Below are positions 22,135 through 45,583 of a DNA stretch of 64,000 nt, one piece after another (positions within the stretch are counted from its first letter, which is position 1; every line of letters starts with the position of its first letter). The notes below the pieces were generated by a model. The model was not told where the DNA came from and searched no databases. It saw only the letters and a list, made by a program, of their open reading frames with translations. Both the position numbers and the translations under genes were made by a program. The stretch lies in the NCBI GenBank assembly GCA_010405405.1, contig MU004232.1, positions 391,481 to 455,480 of the forward strand, in the 5' to 3' direction. Origin of the DNA: Microthyrium microscopicum. Lineage: Eukaryota.

Positions 22135-22512
22135 TCAGGGCCTTGATATCTTGTTCCGCCAATGATTTTGCATTTCCTGCTTCTTCCTCTCCTCCTCCTT
22201 CTTCGCCATCTTCTGCTCCTCCTTCTTCGCCATCTTCTGCTCTTCCTTCTTCTTCAGATAACCATCCCACTTAACCTTGGCCTCCGCCGCCTTCTTCTGC
22301 TCGCTCTTCCTCTTCAGATAACCATCCCACTTAACCTTAGCCTCCGCCGCCTTCTTCTGCTCCCGCTGAACTGCCTCATTTTTCATCCGCTCTATCTTCT
22401 CAAAAACCTCATCCCACCCAAGTTTTCTCCCAAATTCCATCTCCATCTCCCTCTTCGTATTCCGCAAATGCGGTCCTGGCCTATACGGTTTTGGCCTATC
22501 CTTTTTGGGCTT
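22135..22512 (-). other. Stop-free in-frame extension (125 codons) directly after the PAT1 TAG; charged, helical and repetitive
   Basis: Reads GCT TAG AAG CCC AAA AAG GAT AGG... and stays open to TGA at 22135. Contains 60-nt and 24-nt tandem repeats. Confidence 0.6.
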
Positions 22513-25180
22513 CTAAGCCAACAACTCAACATCCAATCCCAACGCTCTCATAAACAGATTAACCTCGCCCAACCGTCGTTCCTGCTCACCAGCTGGTAGT
22601 GTGCGTGCGGCGCCCACACTGCTCATGACGCGGTCTTTGACGCCCAGTACGAGTCGTTGTTGCTGTTCGGCGGACGCGGTGGCGCCCATGGCGGCGAGGA
22701 ATTGCCACACGTATACATCTTCGGACGCGAGCGGTGAGGCTTCGCGGCCAGAGGCATCGCGGGGCCAGATCTGCATAAGGAGTGGTTCCAGCGCGTTGAA
22801 GAAGTCGTTGTAGACGGATGTGTATTGTGCGAATTCATTTGGTCCGGAACCAGGTTCGCCGGTGCCGTTGACTGCGGCTTCGCGGAGGAGTTCGGCGCGG
22901 GCGACGAGCATGGTTAGTAGTTGGAGACCGATCTTTGTGCGCGTGACGGCTTTGATATCGCAGCGGCTCACGATGAGGCCTAGCAGGCCGGAGGTGATTA
23001 CGAGAGGAGAGTCGTTTAGATGGCTGAAGAGGGGTGGGATGACGGCGTTGACGAAAAGTTCAATGTCTTCTTTGACTTTTGCGGGGATTGGTGAAGAGAG
23101 CGCGTTGTGGACTACGTCGAGGGTGTCGAGATGCACGAGGATTACTGTTAGAACTACGGTGCGTTGTTCGTTGGAGAGGTGGCGGAAGACGCGAGGGATA
23201 GCTTTTTTGCCTTTGGCGTGGGAGAGGATTGCTATGAATGGGTGGAGGGTTGCGTGGCTAGAAATGTTATTAGTACAGTAGAGTAAGATCCTGGGCATTC
23301 GCTTACTTTTCGACAATCGGCTCGTAGGCTTTCAGAGATGCCCAGAGTTTGTCGTTGAGTTGTTGTGTTTTTGCAGCCCAGAGGTCGAACATTTCGCTTT
23401 CTTCTAGAGGCCGGAGACGGGCGTGGTCTTCAGTTTCCATGAGAGCACCATAAACTTTTTCAATGTTCTTTAGAGCGGAGCGTCGTTCTTCGGTAGGGTC
23501 ATGATGGCGGCTTGGCCGTCTAACATGAACTGACTGGTCACTATCAAGTCGCTTGATGTTTAAAAGCGGCTTTGGCGTCTTTGCATTACTGAAGGAGATC
23601 TTTCCAAGACTGCCCTCAATGACCAGCTGCTTGTTCTTTGGCTTTGCTTTGGCCGCTTCAACCGCGCGTTGGACTTGTTGTTCCATTCGTTGCATATGAT
23701 TTTCACCGCCACGAGGATGTCGTCGGTTTTGACCATAGCGACCTCCGGTTTGGAAAAGGTAGGTTTGCGCAAACTGGTTGGCGGGTTGATGTGGGTTCTG
23801 GCGAGGAGCACCTCGTATTTGAGAATATACTTGATAGTAAAAGTCCTCACTAAGTAATCCCTCCGGGCCTTCGGAGTCGACACTGCCGGTGGCCGTGACA
23901 AGCTGCTGAAGCTGAATTCGAGTTATGAAGTTCTTGTCTTGCGGAGTCATAAGTCCATTATGTTTTGACAATAAATGGATTTTATGGTTTCGCTTTGCTC
24001 GTCGTGCTTCTTCCTGAAGATATGCTGCACGATCTTCATCCGAGAGTTGCAAGATCTGACTTGGATGAGAGATAATCGGACCGGAAGGTCCTCGTCCATG
24101 GCCTGGTTGGAACTGTTGATGAGAAATTGGCTGTCCAGGCCCAGACAGTCGGTTTGGATTTTGCAAAATCTGTCGAGGAGCTTGTTGGTGCGCAGACTGT
24201 TGCTGCTGTTGCTGCCGACCATGATGCTTGGGTCCAGTCGGAATCTGCTGTTGCTGCTGAGGACTAGACTCTGGCTGACGCTGGCGCTGCAAGATCTGAG
24301 GAGGCCGGTTTTGCCCCGTGGGTTGAGAAGGCTGGGGCGGTTGCTGCTGCTGCTGTTGTTGCTGCTGCGGCTGGCCCGGCGGTCGCTGCAGGATCTGAGG
24401 ATGAGCTGGCCACTGCTGTTGTTGCTGATGTTGACTTTGATGCTGCTGGTGATGTCCCTGATGCTGATGATGCTGTCCCTGATGCTGCATGAATGGCTGC
24501 TGCTGATACTCTTGCGGGTTTGTCGGAATAGGATATGACCCCTGCTGCATGGAAGGTTCGCCATATTGTTGCTGAGCAGCCTGTTGAGGAGCCTTGGGCT
24601 TGCTCTGCGCTTGCATCATAGCCTCAACTTCTTCCAACGTCATGGCTTTGCGCGCAGCTGCAGGAGGAGGTTGTGCGGCTGGTTCTGGCTCTTTCTTTGC
24701 AATACCCCAGAGATCCGCATCCACTTCGAGCTCTTGTATAGGACGATAGCCGTGGCGCGGCGCCGCAGCCTTCTTGACAGGACTAACTCGACTCGGGGCG
24801 TGTTGAGCAGCCCATCGCATGCGCTCTTCCTCAAAAGCCTGAGCAACGTTTCCAGTCTGTCCAGAGAAATCAAAGTCCCGCCCAACGTTCTTTTGAGTGA
24901 CTGGCCCTTCGTCGCCAAATGTATCATCGTTCAGATCGTCAGCCGCATCGTCGAGTCGTCCGCCTAGTCCTTCGTACGTGTCGTCAAAGTTGAGACTATA
25001 TACCGTGTTAGTATGGGTCGTTGAACGAAGCTGGCGGAGGGGGGTCTACATTTCGTCATTGTCTGCTGCTCGAGCGGACTGAAGTCCATCAAAAGCATCT
25101 TGAGTAGCGCCAAAGCCGGGCGCAGAGGTCTGATGGCCTCTATCTCTCGGCAGCCGAGAATCAAACCCGAAAAATGACAT
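22513..25180 (-). CDS. PAT1: Decapping activator / topoisomerase II-associated protein Pat1, 3 exons
   Basis: N-terminus 'MSFFGFDS' and 'LNDDTFG', a Q-rich middle, and motifs 'GLMTPQDKNFITRIQLQQL', 'EDFYYQVY', 'EGSLGKISFS', 'WQFLAAMG' and terminal 'LGLDVELLA'. Introns at about 25049-24997 and 23306-23258. Confidence 0.95.
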
Positions 25181-25769
25181 GGTTATAGGAAAATGTGTTG
25201 GTATAAAGTGAGCTTCTGGCAATGAAGGTTGACTTGATGGAGTGCGTGGTGGGATAAGCGCGCGTATAAACGAAGCTTGCTCCTTCTGGCGTTAGTGTAG
25301 ATTCAAGCGCCCTGCAGGCCACTAGGGGTAGTGGCCAATCAGTACGACTTTTGACGGGTTATTCCTTTTGCAAGGCTGAGCCTTGCAAGTTTCCTGAACT
25401 TTACCTTAAGATAAATCTCTGAGCGATTGAGCTGCCAGTTACTAGATTCTCTGGCCTTCCCCGGTTGAAAAGCCTCTTGTCTTCTCCGGGCTCCCCTCTC
25501 CATTAAACATTAATCCAACACTACTCGACATAAAAGCATAATTTTCCCCGTCACGAGCCAGAGCAAGGAAATCCAGCTCATCAAGTCCAGGTGTTGGTGG
25601 GCAATCGGCAACGCCCCACATTTCGCTCTCACCTTAGCCGGCTCACAATATTTCAACTGTAAGTCAATTAAAGATGGCCTTTCTTTTGTGCAAGTATACT
25701 GTCTCTTGAGGTCTAACTGCTAGCAGCTCTCAGTTCATCTGCGCTCTCCAGTCCCGAAATCCATCCATC

Positions 25770-26468
25770 ATGACTTCAATTAGCAGTCCCAAAGTCGAGG
25801 ATGAACTCGAGAAGCAAAAGAAGTTCTCGCCATCCACTTCTAAGAAAGCCTGCTTTCTCGGAATTCCAACCGAACTACGATGCGAGATCTACAAGAAGTA
25901 TTTCGAGAAAATCGCAAGTCAAGAACGCTACACGAGTCAAGTTCCACAGGTCTTCGATGAAGCCAACGCTCTCTTTTTGGTCAGCAAACAAGTCTACAAT
26001 GAGTCTCGAGATTTGTTTCGCAGCCATATTCTCCGCCCGCCCATGAAGGCATTCGATCTCTTTGCCGACAGCTGGCCAGACTTCAAGAAGACATTTCGAA
26101 GGATCCCCCGCCCTTTGTGGTCACAACCGAACTGCGAATTCAATGTGCAGCTGTGTATACTGAACAGTCCAAAGAGTGGCAACAACTACCCAATCGCCAA
26201 AATTCTCAATGTCATCGCCTGCGATTTGGGCTTTGAGAGCCATGTCGAACTGGCACGGGTCTCACCGCTGTATACGGATATCTATTCGCAACTGAGAGTC
26301 CACCAAAAACGGATCTACGAAATGGATGGTGGCGAAGGCTGTACACTGGATTTCAAGGTCGAGACGCACAGCGAACTCTGCGATTGGGAGTACGTCCATA
26401 TTCAGGGTGAACTGAAGGACATTCTCAAAATTCGCTGTCTCGAGCAGATCCTTGAGATTGAAGACTGA
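25770..26468 (+). CDS. Hypothetical protein with an F-box-like N-terminal motif
   Basis: 'CFLGIPTELRCEIYKKYF' and 'LFLVSKQVYNES' resemble fungal F-box-like proteins. Confidence 0.65.
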   Translation: MTSISSPKVEDELEKQKKFSPSTSKKACFLGIPTELRCEIYKKYFEKIASQERYTSQVPQVFDEANALFLVSKQVYNESRDLFRSHILRPPMKAFDLFADSWPDFKKTFRRIPRPLWSQPNCEFNVQLCILNSPKSGNNYPIAKILNVIACDLGFESHVELARVSPLYTDIYSQLRVHQKRIYEMDGGEGCTLDFKVETHSELCDWEYVHIQGELKDILKIRCLEQILEIED

Positions 26469-27197
26469 TGCGTGAGTTCATATCAGCATGACACTTGAGC
26501 CAAGGGCTCAGATATCTGTCAGCCTGTCACTATGCTTGGTAGCCAGGAACTTCATAGTTCGAATTGATTTGTTATAATCCTTGTCCGGTGTTTCTGTTCA
26601 GTGCTATCGCCTTTTCCACACGATAAAAAACTAAACGATAGAGCTTATGTTTCTTTAAGGGCACAGTATCATGCAATACACATACAGTCGAGGAAATCTC
26701 TTTATTTTCAATAGATCACTTCTGGATTGCAAGGGACTTAACAACGACTGGCCAGTGGTCACGGAGTGTAGATTACAACAAGTTGTACAAGCAACATCAC
26801 ATCAAAGATGCTAATCTTCTTATGAGGCCTGCCACTGATTAATGGCTAAAATAGGTAATTCACAAGGTCAAACAAAGTGGGTATTCAAAGTGTATTAGAC
26901 TCTAAGAGTTCTATCTATAACAGGGAAGTTAACTATACGGGGTATCTTGGGTATCTTGTCGTAGCCACTGTGTAATTCGTTTGCTGGGCAACAGGTATTC
27001 ATGATTACCTCGAAACCCTATATCGGCCGATCTCCTCACACTGCTCGAAAGAGTAGTAGCACAAATGCTTATGGGAGGAGTGGATGAAAGGATTCGAGGT
27101 TGTAAACATTCAAAGACAAAGGCACTGCGGGTTTTAGTGAGTCGAGGACGGATTTGAGCTGTAGAGTACTTACCGCCTGAAGAAGCGCCGGGTGGGA

Positions 27198-27350
27198 ACA
27201 AGAGTAAACATGTCGAACTTGTGTGCGACTTCGTTAGGAAGGCATAAGTATGTTGTGTCCTGGCGGGGAGGGGATTGGGATTTTGTTAGGTATACAAGAG
27301 TAGACGTGTCGAACTTGTGTGCGACTTATGGGCAAGGCTTAAGTATGTTG
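27198..27350. repeat. Two imperfect ~57-bp direct repeats, 96 bp apart
   Basis: 'acaagagta[a/g]ac[a/g]tgtcgaacttgtgtgcgactt...aagtatgttg' occurs at 27198 and 27294. Confidence 0.8.
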
Positions 27351-27549
27351 GATTATCGTCGCAAAGGGAAGGGTAAGGGGAACGTGTACGCATGATAGTT
27401 CCTTGTAAGAGTCATTGTAGCCAACACAAATCCAGGCTGGTCGAGAAGGGCGGAGGAAGCACTGTAGGGAGGAGGAACGAGTCGAGGATCAAGCCGCCTG
27501 GGAACGAGATGTTAGTAATATCTCAGTAAGGGGAAGTATGGTCCTCACC

Positions 27550-28450
27550 TCAACGCTTCAGAGCCCACAGTGTATAAGCATGGCGGCGACGGCGAGTTTC
27601 AACGTCTTCCGCCTGGTCAACCTGGAGAACTTCTAATACCATAGCCTCCAACTCTTTGTAGAGCTTCGTGATTTCCCTATCTTTGCGGTCCTTTGGCTGT
27701 TTGGGTCGAAGCAGCTGGACGATTTGAGAAACAACTGGGCCGAAATCGTTTGGCGCGGTTCGATCCTCAAGAAGTGCTTTCAAGACGGTACTATCCGTGA
27801 ACTTGATGTCTGCAATTCGATGCTGGTAGCGGATCTTCGAATCGAAGTCTTGAAGTATCTCGCTGTTTTGCGGAGACGGCGTTGCCGCTTCAACTCGTTC
27901 GAGATACTTGGAAGGCGTGCCAACGCAAAAGCTCTTACGCTTCGCCTGTGCCTTGGACGCCTTTCTCTCGCGCTTTGAGCCCAAAAGGTCTGAAGGATTA
28001 GGGAAGTAGCTGCTTCTACGACGGGGCGTGGGAGGTGTGACCTCGAAGTCTCCAGTCGTCTTTTCAATGAGAAAGAGTTTGTCCGCAACATCCTTTAATC
28101 GCTGTTGTCGCATCTCGTAAGATTGGTTGCAGGACTTGCATTTTTCGTGATTACCTGATGTAGCAGTGGTTAGCCCACTACCTAGATATCAACCCATGTT
28201 GGACAATTCATGCTTACCATCGCGAAGGGGAGTGCCATGAAACTTCTTGCACATCACCATGTGCTCGACGGCGCCAAGGCAATTGGTCATCTCTCTACGG
28301 CACCAGCAATGGTGTTCTGAAGAAACGTAAGCGTAAGAAACGATACAAGACGACTGGTGGTGGTGAGTACTTACCATAAATACCCAAATCCTTAGCCGAC
28401 GCTGGATTTTTGTTCCACTCAGCGTAAAACTCGGAGCCTTTAGAAGCCAT
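27550..28450 (-). CDS. Orphan paralog A with an N-terminal Cys/His cluster, 3 coding exons
   Basis: Spliced product: MASKGSEFYAEWNKNPASAKDLGIY|EHHCWCRREMTNCLGAVEHMVMCKKFHGTPLRD|GNHEKCKSCNQSYEMRQQRLKD...LLEDRTAP...ETRRRRHAYTLW. Canonical gtaagt/gtaagc donors. Confidence 0.75.
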
Positions 28451-31265
28451 AGCTTTGGGTATAGACTGGAGTTGGTGGTAGTCAAGGAGGAATTGAGGCT
28501 TGAGAGGATTTACGGATATTGGCCGTAGGGTGGACGATGATATCAGGGTTGCGGAAAGTCGAGTGGGTTCGTGGTGGGTGGGAGTTAAGGAAATTGGAGA
28601 AGGAAAACACCAGGAGAGCTGCTATGTCGCCGAGGAATATACCACCGAACGCTCCCGAAGTGACTGAAGACCGAGATGCCCTCGATGGACGCAACGCGTT
28701 GTGTGTACATATCAACCATCGTGGAAGTCACTGAGCAACCTAAGCTTCACCTCAAAACCTCCGCAAAATACGCCCCTCGCGGAAGCCTCTCGTGGCTGAT
28801 AGTGCTTGGAGAAAGCGGTAGTCGCGATCTCATGAGAGCATCCATTCGCCTTGCTGCCCGTTCATATAAAAAGCGAACGATGTCTTCGACCAATCCTCAG
28901 AACCGCCATCATGTAGAGCTGCTAGGTGTTGACTGGCGACGGCATTGCCTTCAGATACTACTCCTCCAACCTCAGAACCCGCGCAGAGAGCATTAGATCT
29001 GGCGGTAGCTACTTTTGTAAGTTATGTCTTCATGACAGGCGGAGGCTTCAATCACGTTTGTTCATTCTCGCAAACCCTCGTAGCCCCTATCGCGTATAAA
29101 GCTTGCAATGATATATACCACGGGCTCTAAACTTTGACCAACTGCGCCCTGCACCTCTCTCACACGGCTGGTTTCCCGTGTCACTTCAGAGTTCTTCTCC
29201 AGTTTATCTCGGTTCAGTCTTCTCTCCTTGGGAAAGAACACCTAAGAATAGAGTCTGTATTTGAGGAGCTCAGGATGAATATTATCATGGCGGTTGAAGT
29301 TAAACGAAGTCACATAAGACGGCCAGTCAATGAAGTGATATCAAAGCGCAAAGGGACCATCAAAGATCATGTTCGATATTCGATTGCGATTCCATCGCCT
29401 GAGAGGCCCGTCATCTCTGGCCACTGGCAGATATCGAGGACTTCGACGAATTGCCTCTTCATAGTCCTGATTGAGAGTGCCGCTTGAAGCTCATGCCCGT
29501 ACGTCCCACCAACGCAGTGAGCATGGAATTTTGGAATGGCCGAGTAGCGGTGTCTGAATCGCTCGCCATCTCAAAAGAACCCTTGGCTGGAGTAGGCGTC
29601 ACAATCGATTTCCTGCCATTTTAGGTTCTTGCTGTAGCATTCGCGTGAGCTGATGAGTTACTGTGCTTACACTTCGGAAGAAGAACTGCTTTGTTCTCGT
29701 GGCTCCTCTTCGTACCCTCGACATATTTTTGTCTATGGGCTTCAGACAATGGAAGAAAGCGCAGGACATCAAATGATCGTTCTATTCAACGCATGTTCCC
29801 CAGCTCACCAGGCCAGGGCTCTTCAGCTAACAATTCTGAGCATCAGATCTGGAAAATGACTCGGTAGTGACGAATGTACATGAGTAGCAAGCATGTCTGT
29901 TTCGACGATTAAGCAACGAGCCGTTGGTCTCCTCGAGGATTGATGATACAGTCTAATAGCTTTCTTTGTTCCACTAAAGTCCAGAAAAGATAAAGGTCGG
30001 GCGGCTTTGGTAATGTCCTCCATGTTGTGCATGGTACATTAAATCTGTCGACCTCCAGTCTTCATGTGGTCTCATAGTCTAATCCAACGCTTGTCGAGCC
30101 TGACCAGGGGGTCGTAATGCTGTAGGCTTTTGTGGCAGCCCGGGCCCGTCCATCTCTAATTGGTAGCCATTATACTCTAGATCCAATGGACAATGGATGG
30201 TATTTCAAAACTTGTTTGCTTTTCTGGAGCAGTACATGCATTTTTTGTAGAAAGCTCTCTTGATATTCAAATAAATAAATGATATCGAGTGAGCGTAGTT
30301 ACTTAGTTCGATCTTATCATTCGAAAGTCCTGCACAGACAGTGAGCGTGGCTGAAAATAGTAGCAAGCATTGCTCGAGTTGAAGTAGATCAGAAGGTTTT
30401 AGATCACTAGACATGCTCCAAAAGGGTGAGAGCTTCAAGAGATATCTTATGAGTAGCTAGAATATCTTGATAGCCTATAAATGCGGTTTTTTGGGTGTAT
30501 GGATCTTCAAAGTAACAAGATATTGGTCAGTGACTGACCTCAGGGTATGTAATGGAATGTTTGGCATTCAATCAGTCCGCCGGGCTGGACCAGTGTTGCT
30601 GGCCGTTACGGTGGCCGCCATTTAATTTGCTGAAGGTAAATTCTTTAGCCCCTATCGAGTGTATGTGACTCCTAGATTATCGGATGTGGTAGGAAATAGA
30701 GCCGTGTGGTTTCCAGAAGGCATTTTATCGCAGATGACGAAGTTGCTGGCAGCAGCACTCAAATCATTGGCTGATTCGACACCAAAGAGTCAAGAATAGC
30801 TTCTAGCGAGAAAGAGAAATCCATGGGACTGCTCATAGCCTTCTATACTTACAAAGGTAAGACTAGCTCCAGCGGGGAGATAGTTTTAGAGTATGAAATT
30901 TCTAACAAGATTGGAGGACAGCTAATATCACAACGTCTTTTAGAATAAGTCACGAAATTCAAAGTGAGCAGCATGGTTTTAATTTAAATGTTTGAAGAGA
31001 AGTTCAATCATAGAACAAAGGCCAGCAAAAGGACAATAAATCCAAAAAAGACCAGCACAGAGAACGTCTCGTACCTCAACGTCGTTGCAAATGCTGTCCA
31101 CAAAACCGCTCGGGGTATAGTGCAAGGGAAGACTAAATATGAGGCCTTCGCGTGTATGGAAGCCAATCGCGTAAAGCAATTAAGAAATGCTGGGGGTATA
31201 GTTCATGCAGAAGAAGTGTAAACAAGGTGTAAGCCAAACAGGAAAGGTACTCGAGCGTACAGAAG

Positions 31266-32291
31266 CTAGTTCATGCTGACGTCTAGAGTGCGAGAGTTAG
31301 TTGGCTGACTTTAGCTTTGATTCACAGTCAGCAAAAACTTACTTCCTCTTTGTGTCCAAAGGGCATAAGAGATCCTCCTCTTCCTCGTCTCGATCTCCTC
31401 GCCTCTATCTGCCTCAAAAAGCGAGAGAATCAGTCGTGTAAGCTCAGAATAGAGCTTCCTGACTTCCGACGAATCAACCCTTTTCTGAGGCCTGAGAAGC
31501 TCGATCGCGTTCTCCACCGCCTTGCTGTCGACTGGGGCCGTAGGGTCCTCCAAGAGTGCTTCCATCATTTCGTCAGTCAAGATAGCTGTCGACATCGATG
31601 ATTTGTACCTCATTACAGCATCAAGATCTTGTAGAAGCTGGTTCCTCTCTGGTTCGGGGAGGATGGTCTCGACCTTCTGTATCAGCCAGGCTGGAGTGAC
31701 CAACCCACCTTTCTTTGCCTTTTCGGCAGACTTCATCGCTTTTTCCAGCGCCTTTGCCGCCCTCTTTTCTTTTGCCGAGGATGCCTTGCCATTTGGAGTG
31801 CTAACGCCGCTAGTTTGGGCAATTCCGGGTGTATCCACGGGTTCATCTACGGGAACTGGCGGCCCGGAGGGGAGCACCGCGCCGGCTGGCTCAGCGAATA
31901 TTCCTTTTCCGGCCTGGCTTTCACCAGTGAGGTCTCCAATTTTGGAGAGTTGCTTGGCGATTTCCTTGAGGCGAGCCTGTCGTGTCGTGTAGCCTCTATT
32001 ACAATGCTCGCACTTTCCATCTTCATTATCTACGAAATCGGTTAGATACGTCTTGCCAGATTAGATAACGTGGAATCTTACTGTCTCTAAAAGCCGTGCC
32101 ATGATATCTTTCGCAGCAGACTTCGTGGCCACCCAGACAATGCTTGATTGCCCTCCCACAATGGCAATGGTGCTCTGATATGGTTAGTGGAGTCTCGAGT
32201 AATGAATATGGTCATGCGACTTACTTAGAACTCCCAAAGCAATGATGCTCTTAGGGTTTTTGTACCATGTTGATCGGAAGGCATTGGTCAT
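31266..32291 (-). CDS. Orphan paralog B with an N-terminal Cys/His cluster, 4 exons
   Basis: Spliced product: MTNAFRSTWYKNPKSIIALGVL|KHHCHCGRAIKHCLGGHEVCCERYHGTAFRD|NNEDGKCEHCNRGYTTRQARLKE...LLEDPTAP...ETRKRRISYALW. Its first two introns sit at the same positions as in paralog A. Confidence 0.75.
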
Positions 32292-33654: not shown

Positions 33655-36558
33655 TCAGAGATCGCGGACGAGTCTGGCACCAGCCCAAACAAAGGGATAG
33701 TTTCTTTGATACCAGTTGACACTATTGAAGTCAGTCTTCACTCGCTCGAGTCCCTCTAGCTTTGCAGGAACTTACAATGACTTGCGGCCTGCGATTCTGG
33801 GATGCGTAGCCCAAGAGCCGCCAAGCACAATATTATGTTTGCCGTCAAAGAAATCGGCTAGAATCAATCAATTAGTGTCTGGACATTGGTTGCTGCGTAT
33901 GGGTAGTAGACTCACCAGTATATCCAGGATAAAGCTTCATAGGCTCAAACCCTTCATGCTTCTCCAGCACAGAGCTAGTCCATTCCCACGCACCGCCCAG
34001 TTCAGACTGGCCTGCCAGCTTATGTTCGCCAGTCACTGGCACAGGATGCCAGGACTTGAGGCCAACATTGGCAGATTGCAAGTCAATGAACAAGGACGAT
34101 GGGTCGAGAGATGGCGCTGCTCCATTGCTGGAGAAGTGGTGCTTGTCACCGTTGAATGGTGGCGTCTCTTCCACACCATCGTTGACAAGGTGTGAGTTGA
34201 CAGCAGGGGTCAAATCTGTCCGGTTTGAGACGTCTTTGTTTTTCATCTCTTCGACAAATTCGTAGATGCTCTTGGCTTCTTCGAGGGAAGGGATGCGGCC
34301 TCCCATCCAGCGAGCGCAGCCGGCAATTTCATCGTATGAGGCCATCACGGGCCAGTCAAGCGCAAACTTCAGTGGAACTTTGCCAAACACGGTTCGAACA
34401 GCTTTGTTGGAAACGAAAGTGGCAATGGATTGTCCATTGGTATGCCCATTGGTGTGTCCATTGGAAGTTACATTGATTGCGGTTGATGACAAGAAGGTCC
34501 AAGAAGCCGGAATCTTGTCACTTCCATGAGCTTCAAGATATTTCGCAAAGTCTCCATTGGTGATGGCCCTCTCCTTAGCTTCAAAGGCGCCGACCTGCGC
34601 AGATCTCGTGGGCTTTTCATTATCCCATCCGAAATATCTCGGTGCTTCCAAGTCCTGGTCGGGGTCATCCAGCCCAAGAGAAATGGTCCTAGCAGGTACC
34701 TTGACCCAGTAATTTCCGACAGCATTTGCCTTGGTCGCGCTCGCCAGAGCTTCGAAGTCCGGTACAACGACACCGACGGGAGGCACAGTTCGCTCGCTTT
34801 GAACTAACATATACAACAGAGTCTCCAGATGCATTGTCTCGTGCTCAAATCCCAGCCAGATGGCTTTACGAAGGGCACCGTTGCTCTTTAGCTCATCAGA
34901 CTTCAAGAGGTCCTTTACCCGCGTGCGCACGCTTTCCTGGTAGGCCAAGATCTGCTCCGCTGGCGGCCAAGTTTCCGGGACTTCGCTGTGATCATGGCAA
35001 AGCTCCGGATTGTCTACATCCGGATCAATTCCACGTTCAAAATGTTTCTGGTAATATTCCAGTTCCTTAGGGTTCGGAGATTTGCCAGTAGCTTTGGTAA
35101 GGTGGATATCCAAGAAAGTGGGAATATGACCCAGATAAAAGATACAAGCGTTGCGCAGCTTAATGGGTTTGGCAGTCAACTCTTCATGCGGAATCATTTT
35201 CTGTGTAATGATATCCCAAGCCGTCCAAAGGCTTTCCCAGTCCTGCAGTGATGGAACTGGGCCGGCGGCATACTCAGCGGGTTGCGACGGGAACATGACT
35301 GTAGGCTTGTATGCCATGTGTAATCCTGAAAGTTGTCAGTTTCGTTTGTCAAGCAGACGTCGATTACCAAATTATTTATTGATCGATAGTTTGGAATCAA
35401 TATCATCACAAGATATGGGAGAGAAGTATTAATCATAACATACCATAAGAGGAATCCTCATTCGCCCACCAGGAACCCTGGACTAAGCCTGCATCTCGGA
35501 ACAGCTGATTGGCCTCTTCCGCAGAGAACTTGTTGCTTTCCTCAATTTGGACCCGCTCGTCCTTGTGGATAGTTACACCGTCTACAACGACGTCTCGAAT
35601 TGGCGAAACGCAGGCTACGTGCCGTCCGCCATGTTCGTCATATCGATATTCGCCGATAACTCTCCAGTCCTCAATGTTGAATTGGTGGGATCCGAGGAGT
35701 TCGTTGGCATGCTCCAGACCGTTTAGGATGAACTTGTGAGTCGTACCTTGATTGTCATTGTAGGCGTGGAAGACTTGGCTTGGATCTTTACAGGCGTCGA
35801 TTCCAAGGAGCAAGCAATCTTGTGGCTGAAGAGTGCTGGCAAAGCTCCTCAGGAAACCGGCAGCTTCAGATTTAGTAAAGTTGCCAATACTTGAACCAAC
35901 ACTTAGAACTGCTTTTGGTTTATCCTTGATTCCTTCGGATTTCAGCCATTCCAGACCGTCGTCGTAGGTTGCATGCAGGCCGTAGCATCGAACGTGTTTG
36001 AATTGTCCAGTCTTGATGGCTCCAAGTGTTCGTTGCAATTCCTCGAGCGAGACATCCAGGGCATAATAATCAACCTTCTTTTCGGCCTTCTCCAGAGCAT
36101 TCAATAGGATCTCAATCTTCCTCAAGTTGCTAAAAAGTGTTAGTTCACGTCATCGTCCTCCGAATATCCAGTGATCAGAGGCCTCACCCTGATCCCAACT
36201 CCAAAATGATGCTGTTGTTTGCAATTCGCTCCGCAATACTGTCCGCATATCTCTCCAAAACTGAAATTTCTTTCGAGGTCAAATAGTACTCCGACAAGTA
36301 GGTGATCTTTTCGAAAAGGCGAAGACCAGATACATTGTATAGCAGCAGTGTTGGTAGTGTCTTGCCATGTCCACCTTCTGGTCGCAAGCCTTGCTTGATG
36401 TCCTCGAGCATGGAATATTCGACTCTTGCTTTTCTGATATCAATGATTGAGACGTCATTTTTTGGTACCGCTGGCTTTTCAACCCCAACGGGAGGCTGAA
36501 TGTCCGACGGATCCCTCACGGGAGCTCCGCGCATCGCGACTGGGCTTTCAACAGCCAT
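33655..36558 (-). CDS. egt1: Ergothioneine biosynthesis protein Egt1 (histidine methyltransferase + DinB_2 + FGE-sulfatase sulfoxide synthase), 5 exons
   Basis: Motifs: 'KTLPTLLLY..GLRLFEKITYL.EYYLT', 'ELGSG', 'LRNACIFYLGHIPTF', Fe-binding 'FEHETMHLETL', 'FGWDNE', 'DFFDGKHN.VLGGSWATHPRIAGR', 'NWYQRNYP'. Confidence 0.95.
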
Positions 36559-37999
36559 GATCACAACAAGCAAAAAACCAAGACTTCTAGAACTTGGGTT
36601 TTCGAGAGAATATGGATGAAGTTAAAGACAATTGTAGACAACAAATCGATTACAAGGTGATTGTATAGGAGATTTAATAGAACGAATCAGGGTCGGACCT
36701 TGACGTACGTGTGGAGATCACAGTTCAGGATCTCAGATCAAAGTATACAAAGCATCTGAAAACCAGCTTAACTTCGTCTTACGTTATGTTCTTATACAGG
36801 GATAATTTGATATGTCCATGGACTTTAAAATTTGCTGTACATGTTGTAGAGCCTTCCTTGTAGACAGACAGTATTACACAGCAAACGACATGCAAAGCAC
36901 TGAGCATAAACCGCGCAGCTGATTAAACATACGGACTTGATGACCGTTCATTGCTTGCATAACGGCACTCTTACCGTATTTGCGTGCTATTGGCGCTCAG
37001 CTGAAAGCCTTCAAAATAAAGCAGTCTAATCAAACGACGCATAGCATCCAAAACCTTCCTAAAAAGGTAAACAAGCATGCATCAGTAAGTACGGCCGCCC
37101 CACAGAATTCCATCTGCAGCTATCCAAGTACTACCTGCAGTAACCAAGCCTAGGCATGTGGAAGATTCATCCCTGACGGGATCCAATCCGAAGCCAAAAT
37201 GGCCACAGCTGCGTATAATTACATCCCCTTCTAGGCTTCCTTTGCTCGATTCGCCTGCGGTACCGGCGGTACAAGGTCCATAGCCGCGTCTTGCACGACC
37301 TCACTTCCCAATCCGCCAGGCTGGGGGAGTCTATGACGTGAAGTGGACTCTCACCCACAGGCTTTGCTAGTCCTCAAGAGGGAAGGTAAAGTCGCCACAG
37401 ACGTACAACTATAAAGAGTACACATGCGTAGCTAGGCGTATACGTGCCTAATTGAGCAGAAACGTGTGGTCTGGACCATTGGGCAATGGATGATGACGGA
37501 TCTTCGTGTCGTCGAAAAACACCATGTTCTATGCGAAGCTCGGGGCCAGGGGTAAACCGAATGATTGACCAGAGTGATGCTTGCTTGCAGGTCTACCTGT
37601 ACGGACCTTGGGGTTCCCCTCGAATGATCTGCCGCAGAGGAAAAAAGACTCTAGGTTGCCTTGTTGCATGGTTAGTTTGATATTAATATGCGCGGATGTC
37701 ACCGGCGTAGCGGGGTGCTTGGATGGCCCCGCGGAAGCTGTTGACAAATCCAGTTGAATGGTACAAGAACATGTCAGTAGAATAGCCATGATATGTTAAT
37801 CAAGGTCAGACTAAGAATGGCTGTGGTTAGATTCGATCATGTTTGCTCAAAATAGCAACAAACAGAGCGACTTTCAGCACTCAGCAATATCATAAGCAGA
37901 TACAGCCGTAGGCTCTGTGGACTTAATTCCGAAATGAAGCTCCATGACAGTCATGCATTTACTATTACTACAGAAAATCCCTAGAGGACATTAGTCTAA

Positions 38000-40900
38000 C
38001 TAGTGTAGCCGTCTCAAGTGATCTACAATATCTCTGACATCAGTAACCGTCACACTCTGTCCTCCACGGTTCAATGCATCGACGCATTGCTGCTGAACTT
38101 CAGGCGGACTATCCAAGAACCGCTCAATCAACTCGCCGTCCACAAACCGGCGAGGTTCCTCCTCCATTCTGACGTCGTTTCTGAAGGCTCGATAGCCTTT
38201 GAAGTCGATATCTCCAAGACTCTTGACACTTTCCGCCAGTATATCTTGGAGATTCATGAGCAGATCTCGCTTGTTGTCGGCGATGAGACCAAATAGATAC
38301 AGTGATCCCTCTCTCTATGACGGGTTAGTCAGTAATTAGTCTGTGGAAAGAGGACGGAAATACGCACAGTTGCGAGCAGCGCCTTTGGAACGACTGGCGA
38401 ATCTGCTGATGTTTCCACATCAATACTCTGCATGCGATTGACAAGTTCTCCTATGCAAAATTCCGAATCGACTTGCAGTCTTCGTAAATCGTCTGCGGTT
38501 GCACCCTCAAGATTCCGTGAGAGAACAAGCAAATTCCCTTCGGCATCGCTCTCTAGCCAGCTATGAGGGCCAACTTGACATACGGCAGTTCCCCAAAGCG
38601 TCTGGTAATGTCGAGCTATTTCAGTCAAAGAGTGTTTGCCAACAGTAGATTTATCCTGAGATTTGTATTGCAGTATCGACACTGACTTCATCAAATCCGC
38701 TACTGCAATCGTGTCACCTGTGATGCACATGCTTATTGGCATAGTGGAGGTTCGATATGTAGCCAGTTTGGTGAGCCCTGGCGTTCGTCCAGAAGAAAAG
38801 TCATAGGAGAATATAGCAACTGTTTTGTTCATCGCTGCCACAATTTTCCCATCGACCATGCCAAGGCAACGGCAGGCGCCCTTGATACTATGTTGGAGAA
38901 TTGGGCGTAGAGTTTGATCTGCGGTGAGCTCGAAGATGATGATTCGACCTCGAAATTCGTCTACGGTGTCGTCCTCTACAAAAGAGGTTCCCACGATGAA
39001 ACGTTCTTCCATTGAGCCATAACCATCATCGAGCTCAGTTCGAAGGACGGACTCAATAAGTTCGTCATTTTTAAGCTCATAGCTGGCGACTTCTTTGAAC
39101 ATTACTTCTTCAACGACCTTGAAACTGCTTCTTGATATTTCAGCACCATCCTGTATACTCCGCGCAATCGTTCCTATTCCGAAGACTTTGAGTGCTCGAG
39201 AGTAGACAAGGCGTCTTGCTGTTTCGCCAATCTGTAGTGGTTGGACATGAGTAGTTCGTTCGTAGTCGATTTGTGCGATTTTAATGTCATCGGATGTTGC
39301 AAAAATAACTGAATTTGGGAATGCTTCAGAGTCAAATGGACAGACGCAGTTGACTTGTTCAGTATCGACGGCTGAGAATGTCAACCGACCCTGCTCTTCG
39401 TAAATCAAGCTAGAATGCTCGCTTGCAACGAAGATGCTCTTCAGCTGTCCATCAGGGTACGTCAGTTCCGTAAGCTCTGCTTGTCTCGTACCTAGAACAG
39501 TTTTCATGGCGAGTTTGAGATTTCCATTTTCACCAATCTCATAAGTAGCCACATGCCCATCAGCCAGAGCAGCAAAAAGGATCGGACTATCGTTAACCTT
39601 GGAAACCGTGGAGATGAGTATGGATCGGGGTAGAGCACGTTCTTCTCCACTTTCGGTCGAGCGTATAGGCTTCCATTCTCCAGTGCTCAATCTTATCACT
39701 CCAATCTCACTCTCCTCCTCGACGCCAGAGTTCCAGAATCCAACAAACAGCATCTCTGAAAGTGAAGGTATTGACGACAGAGCGATGCAGGAGATTTGAT
39801 AATTTGGAGGTGCCAGGTGACGTTGAGGTTTGATGCCGTCCTGGAAGTTGAAAACTTGAAGGACATTGCCACCTAAGCAAATCACAAGTCGCTCATCGTT
39901 CGCAGTTGCCGCTATGATGTCGACCCCGTTGTCTGCGTTCCAAACTACTGGATTTGAGTTAGATACGAGACTTCGTATTATGACACTCTTTTGAGTGACC
40001 TGAAGGAGTTGTAGCTGTGAGCTTTGATGAATATTGCGTGCTAGGAGAGTCTGAGAATCCAGAGCCATGCCAGCGTCCAATTCCTCAACGGCGCCAGATG
40101 AGTCGAATTGTAGTAATCTGCTCTCGTCGGTGAAACTTAATAGAATAGCGTTGACTTTTGGTTGCGATGGATCCAACCGAAGACTGAATATTGCAGTCGT
40201 ATTCTCCAAATCAGGGAGTAGACCAAGCTCTTTGACACCCACTCCACTGCGGACACTTCTAATGCTACCATCTTGCCATGCGCCGCTACCAGTGACAATT
40301 CTGGCTTGTCCAGTAGAAAATTCGTTGGCTGGTCCATCACCTGAGCGATTACCCATATCCATGACGGTAAAATCCAGAATAGGGGACAGACTGGCAATCG
40401 TCTGGATAATCTCAATAGTCCCATCCGTAATCCTGACAACTTGAGAGTCTCCGTGGTGCGAACCAACGAAAAGCAGATCGTCAGAGAGATAAACCAGACA
40501 TGCTGCTTGAGACGTAGTTCCAAGCTCTTCCACCTCCATTTCATCCACCAAGCCTTCGCGGTCGAGATGTAGATTCAGGCTGTAAAGTTTACCAAATTCA
40601 TCTGCCAGAACATATCTAAGATTATCGATTCGTGCCCATGACGTCCAGATTGTGGCATGAGGTAACGCTTCAATGTGATCCTTTGCCGTTGGGCCATCAT
40701 CAAACCAGGAAACCTTTGTTTCCGCGAGAACAATTATGCCGTAAGGACGATTCGGAACCGGGATTAAATGGCTTGCGCCAACATCAAGGTCTGCAGTGTC
40801 TCGCTGATTCTCGGAATCTCGATATTCAACAGCAACATCCGTATCCTTGGCGCGCGATTGATAATGGATCTCTCGAAATCTCATGCGAGCATTGCCCTCG

Positions 40901-41559
40901 TAGTCTTCCCAGAGAAGCGCCACTTCGGGCTTTGCCCCACGACCTCTGGGACGCTGACTGAATGCTGCTGACTTGACGTTGAACTCTGGAATTCTAGACC
41001 AGGCGACTTCGTCAAGCACACTTCTTTTGGTTTGGATGCCCTTTTCGACACCTTTGAGGCCCCATTGAACCAGAGGAATTGTTGTTAGAATGCCTTCATA
41101 AATCTCCAACAGCATAAATTCATTTAATGGATCAACGAGGCTCCGTTCTCCTGATTGTACTTCTCTTGCGGTCCTATCTGCAAGATCCTGAAGTTTGAAG
41201 ACTGTGTCCAGCTGTTGAGTGTTTGAATTCCATGATGCTGTGAAGAAGTGTCCGGTGTCTGTTCCAACGAAGATATGATCAACAAGTGAATCGGCCGGTC
41301 GGAACTTGTTGAGTACGACAATGCGACCGTAGACCAAATGTGAGCCAACAAGGTTTAGTATTGCTCCTGAGCCGCCAATCTGATAGGTCTCTATGCGGTT
41401 GAACTTTCTGATCAAGCACCCAAGTTAGCATAGCCACATACACTCCACAAATAGACGTACGTACGCTACTACTAAAGATTCGGAATCCGGGTCTATTAAG
41501 TTGAGCTTGAGGGCCAACCGGATCCCGCTTGGTCGATGAATTGGAGTAATGTAAGCCAT
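38000..41559 (-). CDS. DDB1: DNA damage-binding protein 1 (CUL4 adaptor), 3 exons
   Basis: Motifs: 'MAYITPIHRPS', 'LFVGSHHGDSQ', 'SPILDFTVMD', 'GSGAWQDGSIRSVRSGVG', 'IAVADLMKSV' and C-terminal 'RFVDGELIERFLD'. Confidence 0.93.
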
Positions 41560-42013
41560 GCTAGGGGCTGGAGGTCATATACCAGCACTGAAGCTGTATC
41601 ATCTGTCTGCAAGAATATCTATCACGGCCTCTCGTAATTCAGAAGGGGTCCCTCTAGAAAATCTTTTGCAACAAAAGAATATCGGAATAGAAGTGGGATG
41701 GTTAACAAAGTGAGGTCTTGTTCAAATCATGATGCACAGTGCAGTTGATGATTAAATGCCCGGACATAAGATTAGATTTCGAGCTTCTTATTTCCGCACT
41801 AGTAACTTTTTGGTGACTCTCGAATTTAAAGCATCGAGTTCTGCACAACTTCTGCACAATTTCCTTCCACCACCAAACCTCATCACAGAAAGCGAAACAG
41901 TTAAGTCAGCAAAAACGCAGATTCAAGCGATCCCGGAAAGTCTTGAAGTCCTAGCGCACATTGATATCTCTGGATGATCATTATCCTCAGCTCATAGCGT
42001 CGGCTGATTCGCC

Positions 42014-43232
42014 ATGTCTCGTGCGTCCATCAAAAGCTCAAATATCAAGGAAAATTACGCTAACATTTTTAGACGAAGCCACCATGGACGGCGATGAGGA
42101 GGACTATGTTGTTGCAGAATATGACGTTCTCATAACACCAGAAACCGCCCAACAAATTTATCTCATGCAATATCCAACTCGGGACCGCAAAGCACCATAT
42201 AACGAAGCCAACAACAGCCAACCTCTGGAAATGCGCATCAAACCCCATGCTGGCTTCATGGAACTCGACATTGGTTTCAATACAGGCGAGCACTTCGACA
42301 AGCGCAAGGGAGTTTTGTGGGGTGAATCCTTGCGGGCGACTGAAAAGCTGGGCGCAAACTCCTTTGGTGTTGCTAGTGGCTTCGGAAAAGGGAACAAGTC
42401 CAACGAATCGATGGTCGCGGATAGTAGCCGTGCGGCTGATGAGGAAAAGCTTCGGGATATGCTGCAAGATTTCGATCATTCGGTTGGTGAAGGCAAAGTG
42501 TTGATGAAGCAAACCCTTGGTGGACAGATCATTCGCCCTCAACCTGGCCGTCCTATGTACATGCTCGGCGCTTTTCGAGGCAGTAAGTATACTACGAATA
42601 CCGGCTTGCCGGAAACCGTTGCTAACGGTCTTTAGCTGAATTACATCTATCCATGGTCACTGGAATCGTTCAGATGCGACCTCAGTTCCACCACATTGAT
42701 GCTAAAGGACAATTGGCCAAAGTCAAGCAAGTCCGAGAGCGAGCAGCAGCAGAAGCGGCCAAAGGATCTGAATCTCGTCTAATCACCCAGCGTGCCCATA
42801 CTGCCGATGATGAAGAACTCAATATCGAGCGTACCGACAAGTTCTTGGAACGTGCAGCTATGGAAAAGTGGTCCAGACTCCAGTTCAGAGACGAAGACGT
42901 AAGTTCTTCCGTTCACATACATATCCGAACCTAATGACGTGCAGTCGGACGAAGCTTTCTCTGCTTATCGAGAATCTCTATTCCTCCAAGACACTCATGG
43001 TGCAAAGAAGCTCGAGTCGCCATGGGATAACGAAGAGTTTCTAGACGCCATCAGCATACCCCGTGGCAAACCAGGAGCTCATATGAAGCGCAAGGCGCCC
43101 ATGACACGAAAACAAATTCTGGTTCTACACCGTGAAGCAGAGGAGGATGCTGCTATCGAAGCAGCGGAAAAGGCTCAGAAAGAGGCAGAAGCTGGGAACC
43201 ACAAGGATACTGAGGCTATGGATATGGACTAG
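42014..43232 (+). CDS. RPC5: RNA polymerase III subunit Rpc5/Rpc37 (Sin_N family), about 4 exons
   Basis: Motifs: 'DYVVAEYDV', 'LMQYP', 'MRIKP..G.MELD', 'QTLGGQ', 'YMLGAF', 'GIVQMRPQFHHID'. Introns at about 42021-42072, 42583-42635 and 42899-42945. The start is ATG 42014 or 42084. Confidence 0.88.
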
Positions 43233-43841
43233 CAGTCGAATAATCCAGCAGCACCGGTGGACCGCATGGTTTCATTACGTCTTTCAACCAAACCAGAGTC
43301 TCAGGACGATATACGCCGCCACTCGACTGACACGCGTACCTTGACACCACAACCTATGGAGTTGCGTACTTCCGCGAAAGCAAATTTTCGAGACCACATA
43401 CGCCGCCCACTCGTCACAGATCCTCATCACTTGATGAACCGGTCTTTGGAGATACGTCTTTCGACCGAACCTGATTCCCAGAATGACATAAGCCGCCAGA
43501 CCATTGATCCTCGTGTCTTGACAATCGATTCTCATGTCCTGACAACAGAGTCTATGGAACTCGATGTCGATGCCACTTTGGATTCATTGATCTCCGAATC
43601 ACCCGAGGATCTACGCTCTACAAAATCTGGCAAACTCACAGACGAAGAAGTTGAAGACGAAGCACTTGTGCCACCGCCTCTTCAGACGCGGAAGAAGAAG
43701 GCGGCGGCAAAGAGTTTGTCCAAAGCTACTGGCAAAAAGGTCAAGGCCACCGCAAAGGCAAGCGAACCAACAGATGATCTAATGCCCGAACCACTTGCTC
43801 TGCCTGCTGGCCGATCATTAAGGAACCGGACTAAGAAATGA
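43233..43841 (+). other. Stop-free in-frame extension (202 codons) directly after the RPC5 TAG; internal repeat and basic NLS-like tail
   Basis: Reads GAC TAG CAG TCG AAT AAT CCA... and stays open to TGA at 43841. A repeat with 177-nt spacing has diverged mostly at third codon positions. Confidence 0.65.
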
Positions 43842-43896
43842 TGCACGAAATTAGCGAATTAGATACCCACTTATACCAGGCATTGGAATGTAGATA

Positions 43897-44372
43897 CAGT
43901 GCTGCAAGAGCTGAGTCCTCCCCCCCCCTAGATTATGAAATGGCGCTTCAGGCCGTGATTGGAGGGCGAGAAGATCTAAAGAGTGCGTTAGTATGCAAAT
44001 TTAGCGGCGTAGCCCCTTAGATCAATCTTACCAACTCCATCCTCTTCCCAAATTATAATATTATCGATCCTAAAGCCTAATCTTTGTCAAATATATTGAT
44101 TTTTAGTGTTTTGATGCATCTTCAGGTCAGTAGTGAGTGTTTATTTAATATCAGAATTTGATTTCTACGTTATTAATATGGCTTCAAAAGCGACCCAAGA
44201 TGTGGTATTTAGGAAGGATGGTTTTCAAGGGGCTGCTAATGGGCCGCGACCGGGCGGCGCCCTACAAATTTGCACTGTAACGCCCATCCTACCCCGAAGA
44301 TCCACCCAATTACGGCATGATCCGCTAATTTACGATTTTAGGGGGGGGGAGGACTCAACTCTTGCAGCACTG
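43897..44372. mobile_element. MITE, Tc1/impala-like, 476 bp, ~35-bp TIRs starting CAGT, TA target-site duplication
   Basis: Left end: TA|cagtgctgcaagagctgagtcctcccccccccta. Right end: tagggggggggaggactcaactcttgcagcactg|TA. There are extra subterminal inverted blocks (tgcaaattt/aaatttgca and agcccctt/aaggggct) and an AT-rich core. Confidence 0.85.
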
Positions 44373-44651
44373 TAGAATGTAATACTGACTATTACAATCA
44401 AGCAGCTCAACTTCCCTTTGCTTGCATGTGACCGAAAAGCTGCACTCTAGCATTCGAGTATATCCCATCATGCGGAGTTGCTTCCGCGACATTCAATGGA
44501 TTTCTGAGGCTCAAAATCCCCCCGCCAACTCCAACATCTCACCACCAAGTCCGCGAATACCCGCTCAACATCAATGAATCATAGCTCTCTCAAACCCCTT
44601 CGACAGCTTCCAAACCACAATATCCAAGTTGCTCGAACAACAAACCATTAG

Positions 44652-45404
44652 ATGCTCCGCACCCTCCTCCGCCCACTCACCATTCCCATCCCAAAAATGG
44701 CCCTCAACCCTCAACCCACCGCCTCAAAATCCACATCCTCAACCACATCCAGCGCACCAACCGTCTCCCTCCCCGGCGCACCGCAAGCCGCCCAATTCTC
44801 CAAAGGTTCCCTCGACCGCTCCGCCCTCGCCTCCGACCCAACAACGCAGTTCACAAGCTGGTTCGCCGAAGCCTCCTCCGTCCCACAACACGAAGCATGC
44901 ACACTAGCCACCGCCGAGCTACCATCCGGCCGCGTATCAGCACGCATGGTATACATGAAATCCCTAGACCACGGATTCGTGGTTTATAGCAACTGGGGCA
45001 CTAGTAGGAAAGCCGCTGACATCGCCTCAAATCCGAATGCCAGCTTAGTATTCTGGTGGCGTGAATTGGAGAGACAAGTGAGGGTGGAGGGACGCATTGA
45101 GAGGGTGAGCACGGCAGAGAGTCAGAAGTATTTCGATACGCGGATAAGAGGGAGTCGGGTCGGTGCGTGGGCGAGTCAGCAGAGTAGCGTGTTGAGCGGA
45201 CGAGAAGAGTTGGAGGGGCAGGTGAAGGATGTAGAGAGGAAGTTTGAGGGTGTGGATGAGATTCCTGTGCCGGAGTTTTGGGGAGGCGCGAGGGTTGTGC
45301 CGGAGAGGGTGGAGTTTTGGCAGGGGAGGGAGAGTCGGTTGCATGATCGGTTTAGTTATGTGAGGGATGGAGAGGGGTGGAGGATTGAGAGACTTAGTCC
45401 ATGA
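44652..45404 (+). CDS. PDX3: Pyridoxamine 5'-phosphate oxidase
   Basis: Motifs: 'DPTTQFTSWF', 'SARMVYMK', 'SRKAADI..NP.ASLVFWW.ELERQVRVEG', 'GAWASQQS', 'EFWQGRESRLHDRF'. Confidence 0.96.
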   Translation: MLRTLLRPLTIPIPKMALNPQPTASKSTSSTTSSAPTVSLPGAPQAAQFSKGSLDRSALASDPTTQFTSWFAEASSVPQHEACTLATAELPSGRVSARMVYMKSLDHGFVVYSNWGTSRKAADIASNPNASLVFWWRELERQVRVEGRIERVSTAESQKYFDTRIRGSRVGAWASQQSSVLSGREELEGQVKDVERKFEGVDEIPVPEFWGGARVVPERVEFWQGRESRLHDRFSYVRDGEGWRIERLSP

Positions 45405-45583
45405 TCATCGATATGAGACGAGAATGAGGACTGGAAATAGCATATTCGAGAGAGCGCCATATTCATGTTCTTGTTTGACGGCACTCCTTCTCATTTTGAT
45501 ACCTCGATACTACATAGTGGCCCCCTTAACATGTATATCAACCTTTTCATGAAGTAGACGCTGGCAGATATCAGCTTTTTTGA

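Follow-up and report, generated by a model that had tools for sequence, protein, structure and literature searches.

We analysed a 64,000-nucleotide (nt) stretch of contig MU004232.1 from Microthyrium microscopicum (assembly GCA_010405405.1, positions 391,481 to 455,480 of the forward strand), hereafter the window, in which the gene for the RNA polymerase III subunit RPC5 is followed, in frame and behind a single TAG stop codon, by a long open stretch that we call the RPC5 tail. The window is fungal. The C-terminus of its PAT1 matches, at 100% identity, an annotated 854-residue protein (P0003) whose source is named as this Dothideomycete; the next-best relative reaches only 56-57% identity. 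Pfam agrees with the gene names CLP1, RPC2, PAT1, DDB1, RPC5, pyridoxamine-phosphate oxidase (PDX3), Dicer and GFA. An initial annotation of this DNA had proposed that three of the genes carry protein-like segments gated by one in-frame TAG each, namely a PAT1 tail, the RPC5 tail and a PDX3 leader, and all three TAGs lie where it placed them (PAT1 22513-22515, minus strand; RPC5 43230-43232, plus strand; PDX3 44649-44651, plus strand). We find, however, that the three cases are three different things and that no UAG recoding system operates across the window. A genuine anomaly is seen in the RPC5 tail, and its sequence makes it a credible candidate for stop-codon bypass because it is open only in frame 0, is coding-like, shares an unspliced transcript contig with RPC5, and follows a UAG-C context whose TAG sits in a predicted hairpin. 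The features at the RPC5 locus are the following.

42014-43229, plus strand: RPC5 coding region, with exons 42014-42020, 42073-42582, 42636-42898 and 42945-43229, GT..AG joints in transcript contigs and a Pfam RPC5 match
43230-43232, plus strand: RPC5 TAG, at the ancestral stop position, in the context GAC UAG CAG UCG
43233-43838, plus strand: RPC5 tail, 202 open in-frame codons, acidic and rich in serine and threonine, then ending rich in lysine and alanine, closed by a TGA at 43839-43841
42945-44132, plus strand: stretch without joint, gap or other letter in a single transcript contig of 2084 nt (Record 4)
43276-43523, plus strand: diverged internal duplication in the RPC5 tail, with copies at 43276-43346 and 43453-43523 (blastn E = 1.35e-9)
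43208-43259, plus strand: predicted hairpin whose 3-nt apical loop contains the A and G of the RPC5 TAG (minimum free energy -18.1 kcal/mol)

The spliced RPC5 translation, ending ...TEAMDMD, is identical to the annotated 355-residue protein P0123, and RPC5 orthologues end in ...AMDVD(T), within about five residues of the point where the TAG stands. When the extended RPC5 was compared by phmmer with 1.84 billion representative proteins, all 26 hits matched query residues 8-109 alone, before the TAG. The RNA evidence comes from one run, assembled into spliced transcript contigs that show 12 GT..AG or CT..AC joints in 20 kb, those of RPC5 included; being a consensus, such contigs drop minor variants and are silent on transcript ends and strand. 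The contig that spans the unchanged RPC5 TAG and the entire tail is also the one in which the three RPC5 introns are seen. An intron across the TAG, a candidate tested for RPC5 alone, is ruled out by this jointless contig.

The openness of the tail is specific to the RPC5 frame. Frame 0 holds no stop, the other two sense frames hold 9 and 8, and the antisense frames 9, 5 and 8; in the 202 codons downstream of the tail every frame holds 9-16, the switch to stop-dense sequence after the TGA being abrupt. Chance openness was estimated from dinucleotide-preserving shuffles (100,000 for each segment, counted if open in frame 0), and 24 of them equalled the RPC5 tail, which comes to about 0.005 once corrected for the 19 gene ends defined by open reading frames (ORFs) in the window. 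Coding character was judged by a stop-free codon score normalised to local composition, with 416 overlapping non-coding windows of RPC5-tail length as controls and a ranking among the 133 ORFs that reach 100 codons. At +0.044 the tail exceeds the maximum of the 416 controls (+0.023), falls within the range of real exons and ranks 28th of the 133. The score is imperfect, as values between +0.03 and +0.095 are seen in a few antisense, non-coding ORFs and the coding sequence of PDX3 itself scores -0.135. An earlier score with a global background made both the PAT1 and the RPC5 tail look coding-like and was dropped, since open frames profit from the absence of stops.

The two copies of the internal duplication lie 177 nt (59 codons) apart and share 75% identity. 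Two further origins of the tail were considered and set aside. It is not a copy of the 3′-end of the RPC5 coding region, with which it shares ...ATGGA motifs (the best blastn match between the two is 14 nt, E = 0.97), and the search for an opposite-strand gene beneath it found nothing convincing, the antisense frames holding 5-9 stops.

The context of the RPC5 stop is also distinctive. It is the sole UAG-C among the eight TAG stops in the window, and its post-stop hexamer, CAGUCG, agrees with CARYYA at five of six positions. A C after the stop and a CARYYA hexamer promote readthrough (PMC7026636; papers given by PMC number are cited throughout for excerpts of their text). The hairpin around the TAG has z = -2.60, and 3 of 200 shuffles fold as well. 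For controls, TAGs in exons of the window were folded with 30 nt on either side, the method used on Fusarium editing sites (PMC9600606); the A falls in a hairpin loop in 50 of 150, in 5 of 150 with a loop at -18.1 kcal/mol or lower, and in 16 of 150 at -14.1 kcal/mol or lower. The PAT1 TAG likewise lies in a predicted loop (-14.1 kcal/mol, z = -1.0), as does that of CLP1, and the TAGs of RPC2, DDB1 and dcl1 are paired. Stop context and hairpin fit ribosomal readthrough and ADAT-type editing alike.

The PAT1 tail is of another kind. The features of this locus are listed here.

22516-23331, minus strand: PAT1 C-terminal ORF, the last coding part, ending ...GLDVELLA, with a Pfam PAT1 match; P0003 ends here
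22513-22515, minus strand: PAT1 TAG, the canonical conserved stop, in the context GCU UAG AAG
22138-22512, minus strand: PAT1 tail, 125 open codons, rich in lysine and glutamate, closed by a TGA at 22135-22137
22182-22362, minus strand: tandem repeats in the PAT1 tail (Tandem Repeats Finder)

Positions 624-862 of the 862 in the Pfam PAT1 profile match residues 20-269 of the 272 encoded by the C-terminal ORF, which puts the end of the profile three residues before the TAG. All 120 PAT1 homologues among the matches listed cover 65-66% of the read-through query, that is, they end at the TAG, and all 30 aligned sequences finish GLDVELL plus one or two residues. In environmental PAT1 loci the C-terminus was located in 53 of 80 (the motif missed 27), and those 53 end at the same place, with TGA in 35, TAA in 9 and TAG in 9, and with extension medians of 8-19 codons. 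As these loci vary in their stop and their extensions are mostly short, neither the PAT1 TAG nor a tail is conserved. The longest extension among them runs for 112 codons behind a TGA (L029/L031) and is random-looking, contains cysteine and tryptophan, and has an even base composition.

Openness equal to that of the PAT1 tail arose in 177 of the 100,000 shuffles. The tail holds 0, 4 and 8 stops in its sense frames and 1, 4 and 3 in antisense, and is 74% purine (A 0.36, G 0.38, T 0.14). It contains a 24-nt unit repeated 2.7-2.9 times (22182-22255) and a 60-nt unit repeated 2.2 times (22228-22362), and it stays open because duplicated stop-free units form much of it. Its codon score of -0.39 (rank 125 of 133) is non-coding-like, and the base after the stop is an A, with a hexamer (AAGCCC) that offers neither the leaky C nor CARYYA. 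A word-indexed search of proteins of 68-219 residues returned no homologue, and Pfam at E up to 1 returned no family, merely two matches far under the cut-off. The PAT1 tail is best read as a purine-rich minisatellite in the 3′ untranslated region (3′UTR), behind a conserved PAT1 stop.

The third segment lies in front of PDX3, at these positions.

44508-44648, plus strand: PDX3 leader, 47 codons of 5′UTR, as judged by shuffles, codon score and the lack of real similarity to homologue N-termini
44649-44651, plus strand: TAG immediately before the first in-frame PDX3 ATG (44652)
44652-45401, plus strand: PDX3 ORF, 250 codons, with Pfam PNPOx_N and PNP_phzG_C

Openness equal to that of the leader is found in 46,809 of 100,000 shuffles, and its codon score is -0.435 (non-coding). 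Homology in the leader was considered and rejected: some homologues do align into it, with coverage of up to 94%, and show almost zero identities there. The annotated PDX3 protein (P0149) has 235 residues and is 100% identical across 79% of the 298-residue query, which places its start at the second ATG, at 44697, 15 codons further down. The PDX3 leader is an ordinary 5′UTR, with a TAG beside the first ATG by happenstance. As a separate observation, use of the upstream in-frame ATG at 44652 would prepend MLRTLLRPLTIPIPK to PDX3 (44652-44696), a sequence that resembles a mitochondrial presequence, and the two starts could give the protein two locations.

The same picture emerges from the window as a whole. 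Stop usage at the 19 ORF-defined gene ends, not all of them verified by RNA or homology, is TAG 8, TGA 6 and TAA 5. The initial annotation had held that TAG is not globally reassigned, which our results bear out: eight genes end at TAG, PAT1 and RPC5 stop at the C-terminus normal for their families, and the six other TAG extensions run for 1-31 codons. The TAG-ending genes that it had named do soon meet another in-frame stop, after 31 codons in CLP1, 22 in RPC2, 2 in DDB1, 30 in dcl1 and 15 in GFA. Apart from PAT1 and RPC5, the 17 remaining extensions, whatever their stop, likewise span 1-31 codons. A specificity for TAG was not shown by a comparison of extension lengths behind TAG and other stops (Mann-Whitney p = 0.063, and p = 0.22 when the two outliers are left out). 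The window has nine cases in which a single stop splits two neighboring ORFs, each 100 codons or longer (TAG 3, TGA 5, TAA 1), and one of the TAG pairs, at 20324, sits in a non-coding frame of a desaturase gene. The proposal of a recurrent and selective UAG-gated system is not supported, with the leader a plain 5′UTR, the PAT1 tail a minisatellite and TAG merely the commonest stop. What survives of it is narrower. Both tails, PAT1 and RPC5, are longer than chance at a single gene would give, whereas the PDX3 leader is of ordinary length, and the description of the segments as protein-like applies to the RPC5 tail only, the other two having codon scores like those of non-coding DNA.

A side observation on stop usage is that TAG is the commonest stop at the gene ends of the window, whereas TGA dominates in the environmental PAT1 orthologues (35 of 53). 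The window also holds a look-alike of the gated arrangement in CLP1 (1369-1419, minus strand). Its two halves, ORFs 1376-2296 and 776-1372, share one frame with a single TGA between them; this TGA falls within a 51-nt in-frame intron-like segment (GTATAT...CTAAC...TAG), which makes CLP1 a trivial mimic of the pattern.

For the RPC5 tail we tentatively favor ribosomal readthrough of a leaky UAG-C, a reading that we hold to be possible rather than probable. What the data establish is the ORF with its single open frame, its coding-like codon usage, the unspliced contig across TAG and tail, the conserved stop position and the stop context. We infer both that the tail is translated and that the bypass would take place at the ribosome instead of through RNA editing. 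The tail would then be a lineage-specific stretch shaped by evolution as coding sequence of the RPC5 reading frame, carried with RPC5 on one unspliced mRNA and placed directly behind the ancestral stop. A minority of ribosomes would pass UAG CAG UCG, with a near-cognate tRNA inserting an amino acid, and so make a minor isoform of RPC5 that is extended by 203 residues, probably disordered and ending in a basic patch rich in lysine and alanine.

Such an arrangement would resemble the known readthrough at UAG or UGA followed by C (the stop-CARYYA type of tobacco mosaic virus, TMV), as RPC5 has an in-frame ORF behind a canonical stop on one mRNA, a C as the next base and five of the six CARYYA positions. 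It would also resemble the readthrough isoforms reviewed in PMC7026636, as far as the excerpt goes, in that the extension is long, of low complexity and probably disordered. It differs from TMV-type readthrough in its imperfect hexamer, in an extension that the distant orthologues compared lack, and in being known here from DNA and transcript contigs. The same kind of readthrough includes isoforms of fungal metabolic enzymes, reportedly described by Stiebler and colleagues in 2014. The readthrough extensions that target fungal proteins to peroxisomes are far shorter than the RPC5 tail, and unlike them the tail ends in ...RNRTKK, which is not a peroxisomal signal.

Several points weigh against readthrough of the RPC5 stop. 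The tail resembles nothing in the phmmer search, in Pfam (E up to 1) or in the protein Atlas, and as no protein among the 1.84 billion representatives is similar to it, there is no evolutionary proof of its translation; even the nearest RPC5 relatives are distant, and none has a tail. Its codon score overlaps with the few antisense non-coding ORFs at +0.03 to +0.095, and the differences between the two copies of its duplication, at 8:3:11 over codon positions 1:2:3, go in the coding-like direction but are not significant (p = 0.11). The match to CARYYA is imperfect, with G for A at the last position, and a readthrough extension of more than 200 residues would be unusually long. Long extensions do occur by chance, as the 112-codon ORF behind the TGA of a PAT1 orthologue makes plain, and the RPC5 tail may still be a rare chance event, given that the window was selected from a very large scan. 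Finally, the contigs do not delimit the end of the RPC5 mRNA, and the tail could sit on a separate, overlapping transcript.

If the tail is instead non-functional UTR, open by chance like the other two segments, it would be a rare ORF picked out of a large scan and lengthened by a duplicated stop-free unit. This would account for the absence of homologues of both the PAT1 and the RPC5 tail and for the TAGs being the end point both in the annotation and in every orthologue. The random-looking extension of the PAT1 orthologue, the nine single-stop ORF pairs with all three stop codons, among them the pair at 20324 whose TAG is in a non-coding frame, and the overlap of the tail's score with antisense ORFs all agree with it. 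We nevertheless consider chance somewhat unlikely, since only 24 of 100,000 shuffles are as open (about 0.005 after correction for the 19 gene ends), openness is confined to one frame (0 stops against 5-9), the codon score is above that of 416 of 416 non-coding windows, and stop-dense sequence begins abruptly after the TGA. Those same frame-0 coding features would be explained equally well by an unannotated independent ORF, beginning at ATG 43266 and encoding 191 residues, translated either from a separate transcript that overlaps RPC5 or as a second cistron, its agreement with the RPC5 frame being accidental. As only 11 codons separate the TAG from this ATG, being in frame and open that far would cost about 1 in 5 by our estimate; the region is covered by RNA contigs, and an annotation pipeline would probably hide a small ORF within the UTR of the RPC5 model. 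An independent ORF is, however, a rather unlikely explanation, as each of the five in-frame ATGs is preceded by C or T at -3 (a poor context), a start 34 nt behind the RPC5 stop would call for a promoter or transcription start inside RPC5, neither exact look-ups nor phmmer returned such a protein, and the leaky stop context and the hairpin would be left as coincidences. The exact look-ups covered six candidate ORFs and returned no record.

The alternative route past the stop is stage-specific adenosine-to-inosine (A-to-I) editing, in which a deaminase of the Tad2/Tad3 type would turn UAG into UIG, read as UGG, and so remove the stop of RPC5 and perhaps that of PAT1, much as stop-loss editing does in Fusarium and Neurospora. 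The U at -1 and G at +1 suit such a deaminase (as they would in any TAG), and in both genes folding places the A in a hairpin loop (-18.1 kcal/mol for RPC5, -14.1 kcal/mol for PAT1), to be read against the 50 of 150 control TAGs. The best comparison is stop-loss editing in Sordariomycetes, carried out by FgTad2-FgTad3-Ame1, with FgDBF2 (UAG to UGG) as an example: there, too, the edited A sits in a stable predicted hairpin loop (PMC9600606), and extensions are compositionally biased and poorly conserved (PMC13123824). According to the excerpt of the latter, stop-loss sites occur in 403 Fusarium graminearum genes, and genes so edited have longer, disordered extensions. We regard editing as quite unlikely at RPC5 all the same. 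The contig has an A at 43231, which weighs little, as consensus contigs from one run of unknown stage drop minor variants; across the 20 kb the one deviating letter, at 44255, is a C>A, and this transcriptome offers no A>G. The PAT1 tail is not coding-like, and known extensions are short, with 24 residues in FgDbf2 (PMC13123824) against 202 codons here. The host is moreover a Dothideomycete, outside the classes with documented fungal mRNA editing. In the excerpt of PMC11156358, Sordariomycetes and Pyronema are the groups with documented editing, Aspergillus nidulans and Botrytis cinerea are species in which none was found, and which other Pezizomycotina classes edit mRNA is called an open question. 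The Ame1-Tad3 interaction arose in Sordariomycetes (PMC11087585), and fungi with pseudothecia had not been examined for editing at the time of PMC7306014, as far as its excerpt states. Our own literature search for mRNA editing in Dothideomycetes found no report. The bolder model, that this Dothideomycete has stage-specific A-to-I stop-loss editing, with the UAGs of RPC5 and PAT1 (perhaps also CLP1), each with its A in a stable hairpin loop, as substrates and extensions of more than 100 residues switched on in core RNA-metabolism proteins during fruiting-body formation, strikes us as improbable.

It is also conceivable that the TAGs lie within in-frame introns, or are assembly errors, and that the tails are ordinary exons. 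RPC5 shares with retained or short in-frame introns the appearance of two coding-looking ORFs with one in-frame stop between them, and CLP1 is such a case, its 51-nt in-frame intron holding one TGA. RPC5 differs from them in lacking a splice joint over the TAG: the contig with all three real introns crosses 42945-44132 without a joint, matching the genome letter for letter. In addition, the PAT1 and RPC5 proteins already end where their orthologues do, at the C-terminus normal for each family. We give this explanation next to no chance.

Should the RPC5 tail be translated, this fungus would have two forms of a core RNA polymerase III subunit, with and without a disordered, basic-ended tail of 203 residues, the choice between them being made at a stop codon. 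Such a bypass would be unusually long as well as testable, and it would affect a housekeeping gene in a filamentous fungus. Were editing the cause instead, the case would bear on the question of which Pezizomycotina classes edit mRNA (raised in the excerpt of PMC11156358), and a third ascomycete class with mRNA editing would imply either a further independent origin or one much older than the Sordariomycete account of Ame1-Tad3. If the tail is untranslated, the locus still serves as a useful caution, in that two of three gated segments dissolve on inspection and a further look-alike, CLP1, is an in-frame intron.

The spacer between RPC5 and PDX3 holds one further mapped feature.

44133-44190, plus strand: GT..AG intron (GTGAGT...AG) between the RPC5 tail and PDX3, in the RPC5 3′UTR or the PDX3 5′UTR, from a joint 44132 to 44191 in one contig at depth 98

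RNA contigs span the entire spacer (43509-44842), which together with this intron suggests that transcription runs on from RPC5 into PDX3 or that PDX3 has a long, spliced 5′UTR. An ORF of 65 codons begins at an ATG at 44177, within the intron. Position 44255 is the only place in 20 kb where a contig differs from the genome, the DNA having C and one contig A (depth 54, 65 letters from the contig end). A transcript contig of 15,268 nt covers PDX3 (44345-45499 and beyond) and continues into neighbors on the opposite strand; as overlapping transcripts have been merged in it, the contigs are unable to delimit mRNAs. Elsewhere in the window, two minus-strand ORFs at 27553-28188 and 31314-32060, both outside any Pfam family, are paralogous (32% identity over 234 residues, E = 1e-36); they lie 3 kb apart and have little or no cover by RNA contigs.

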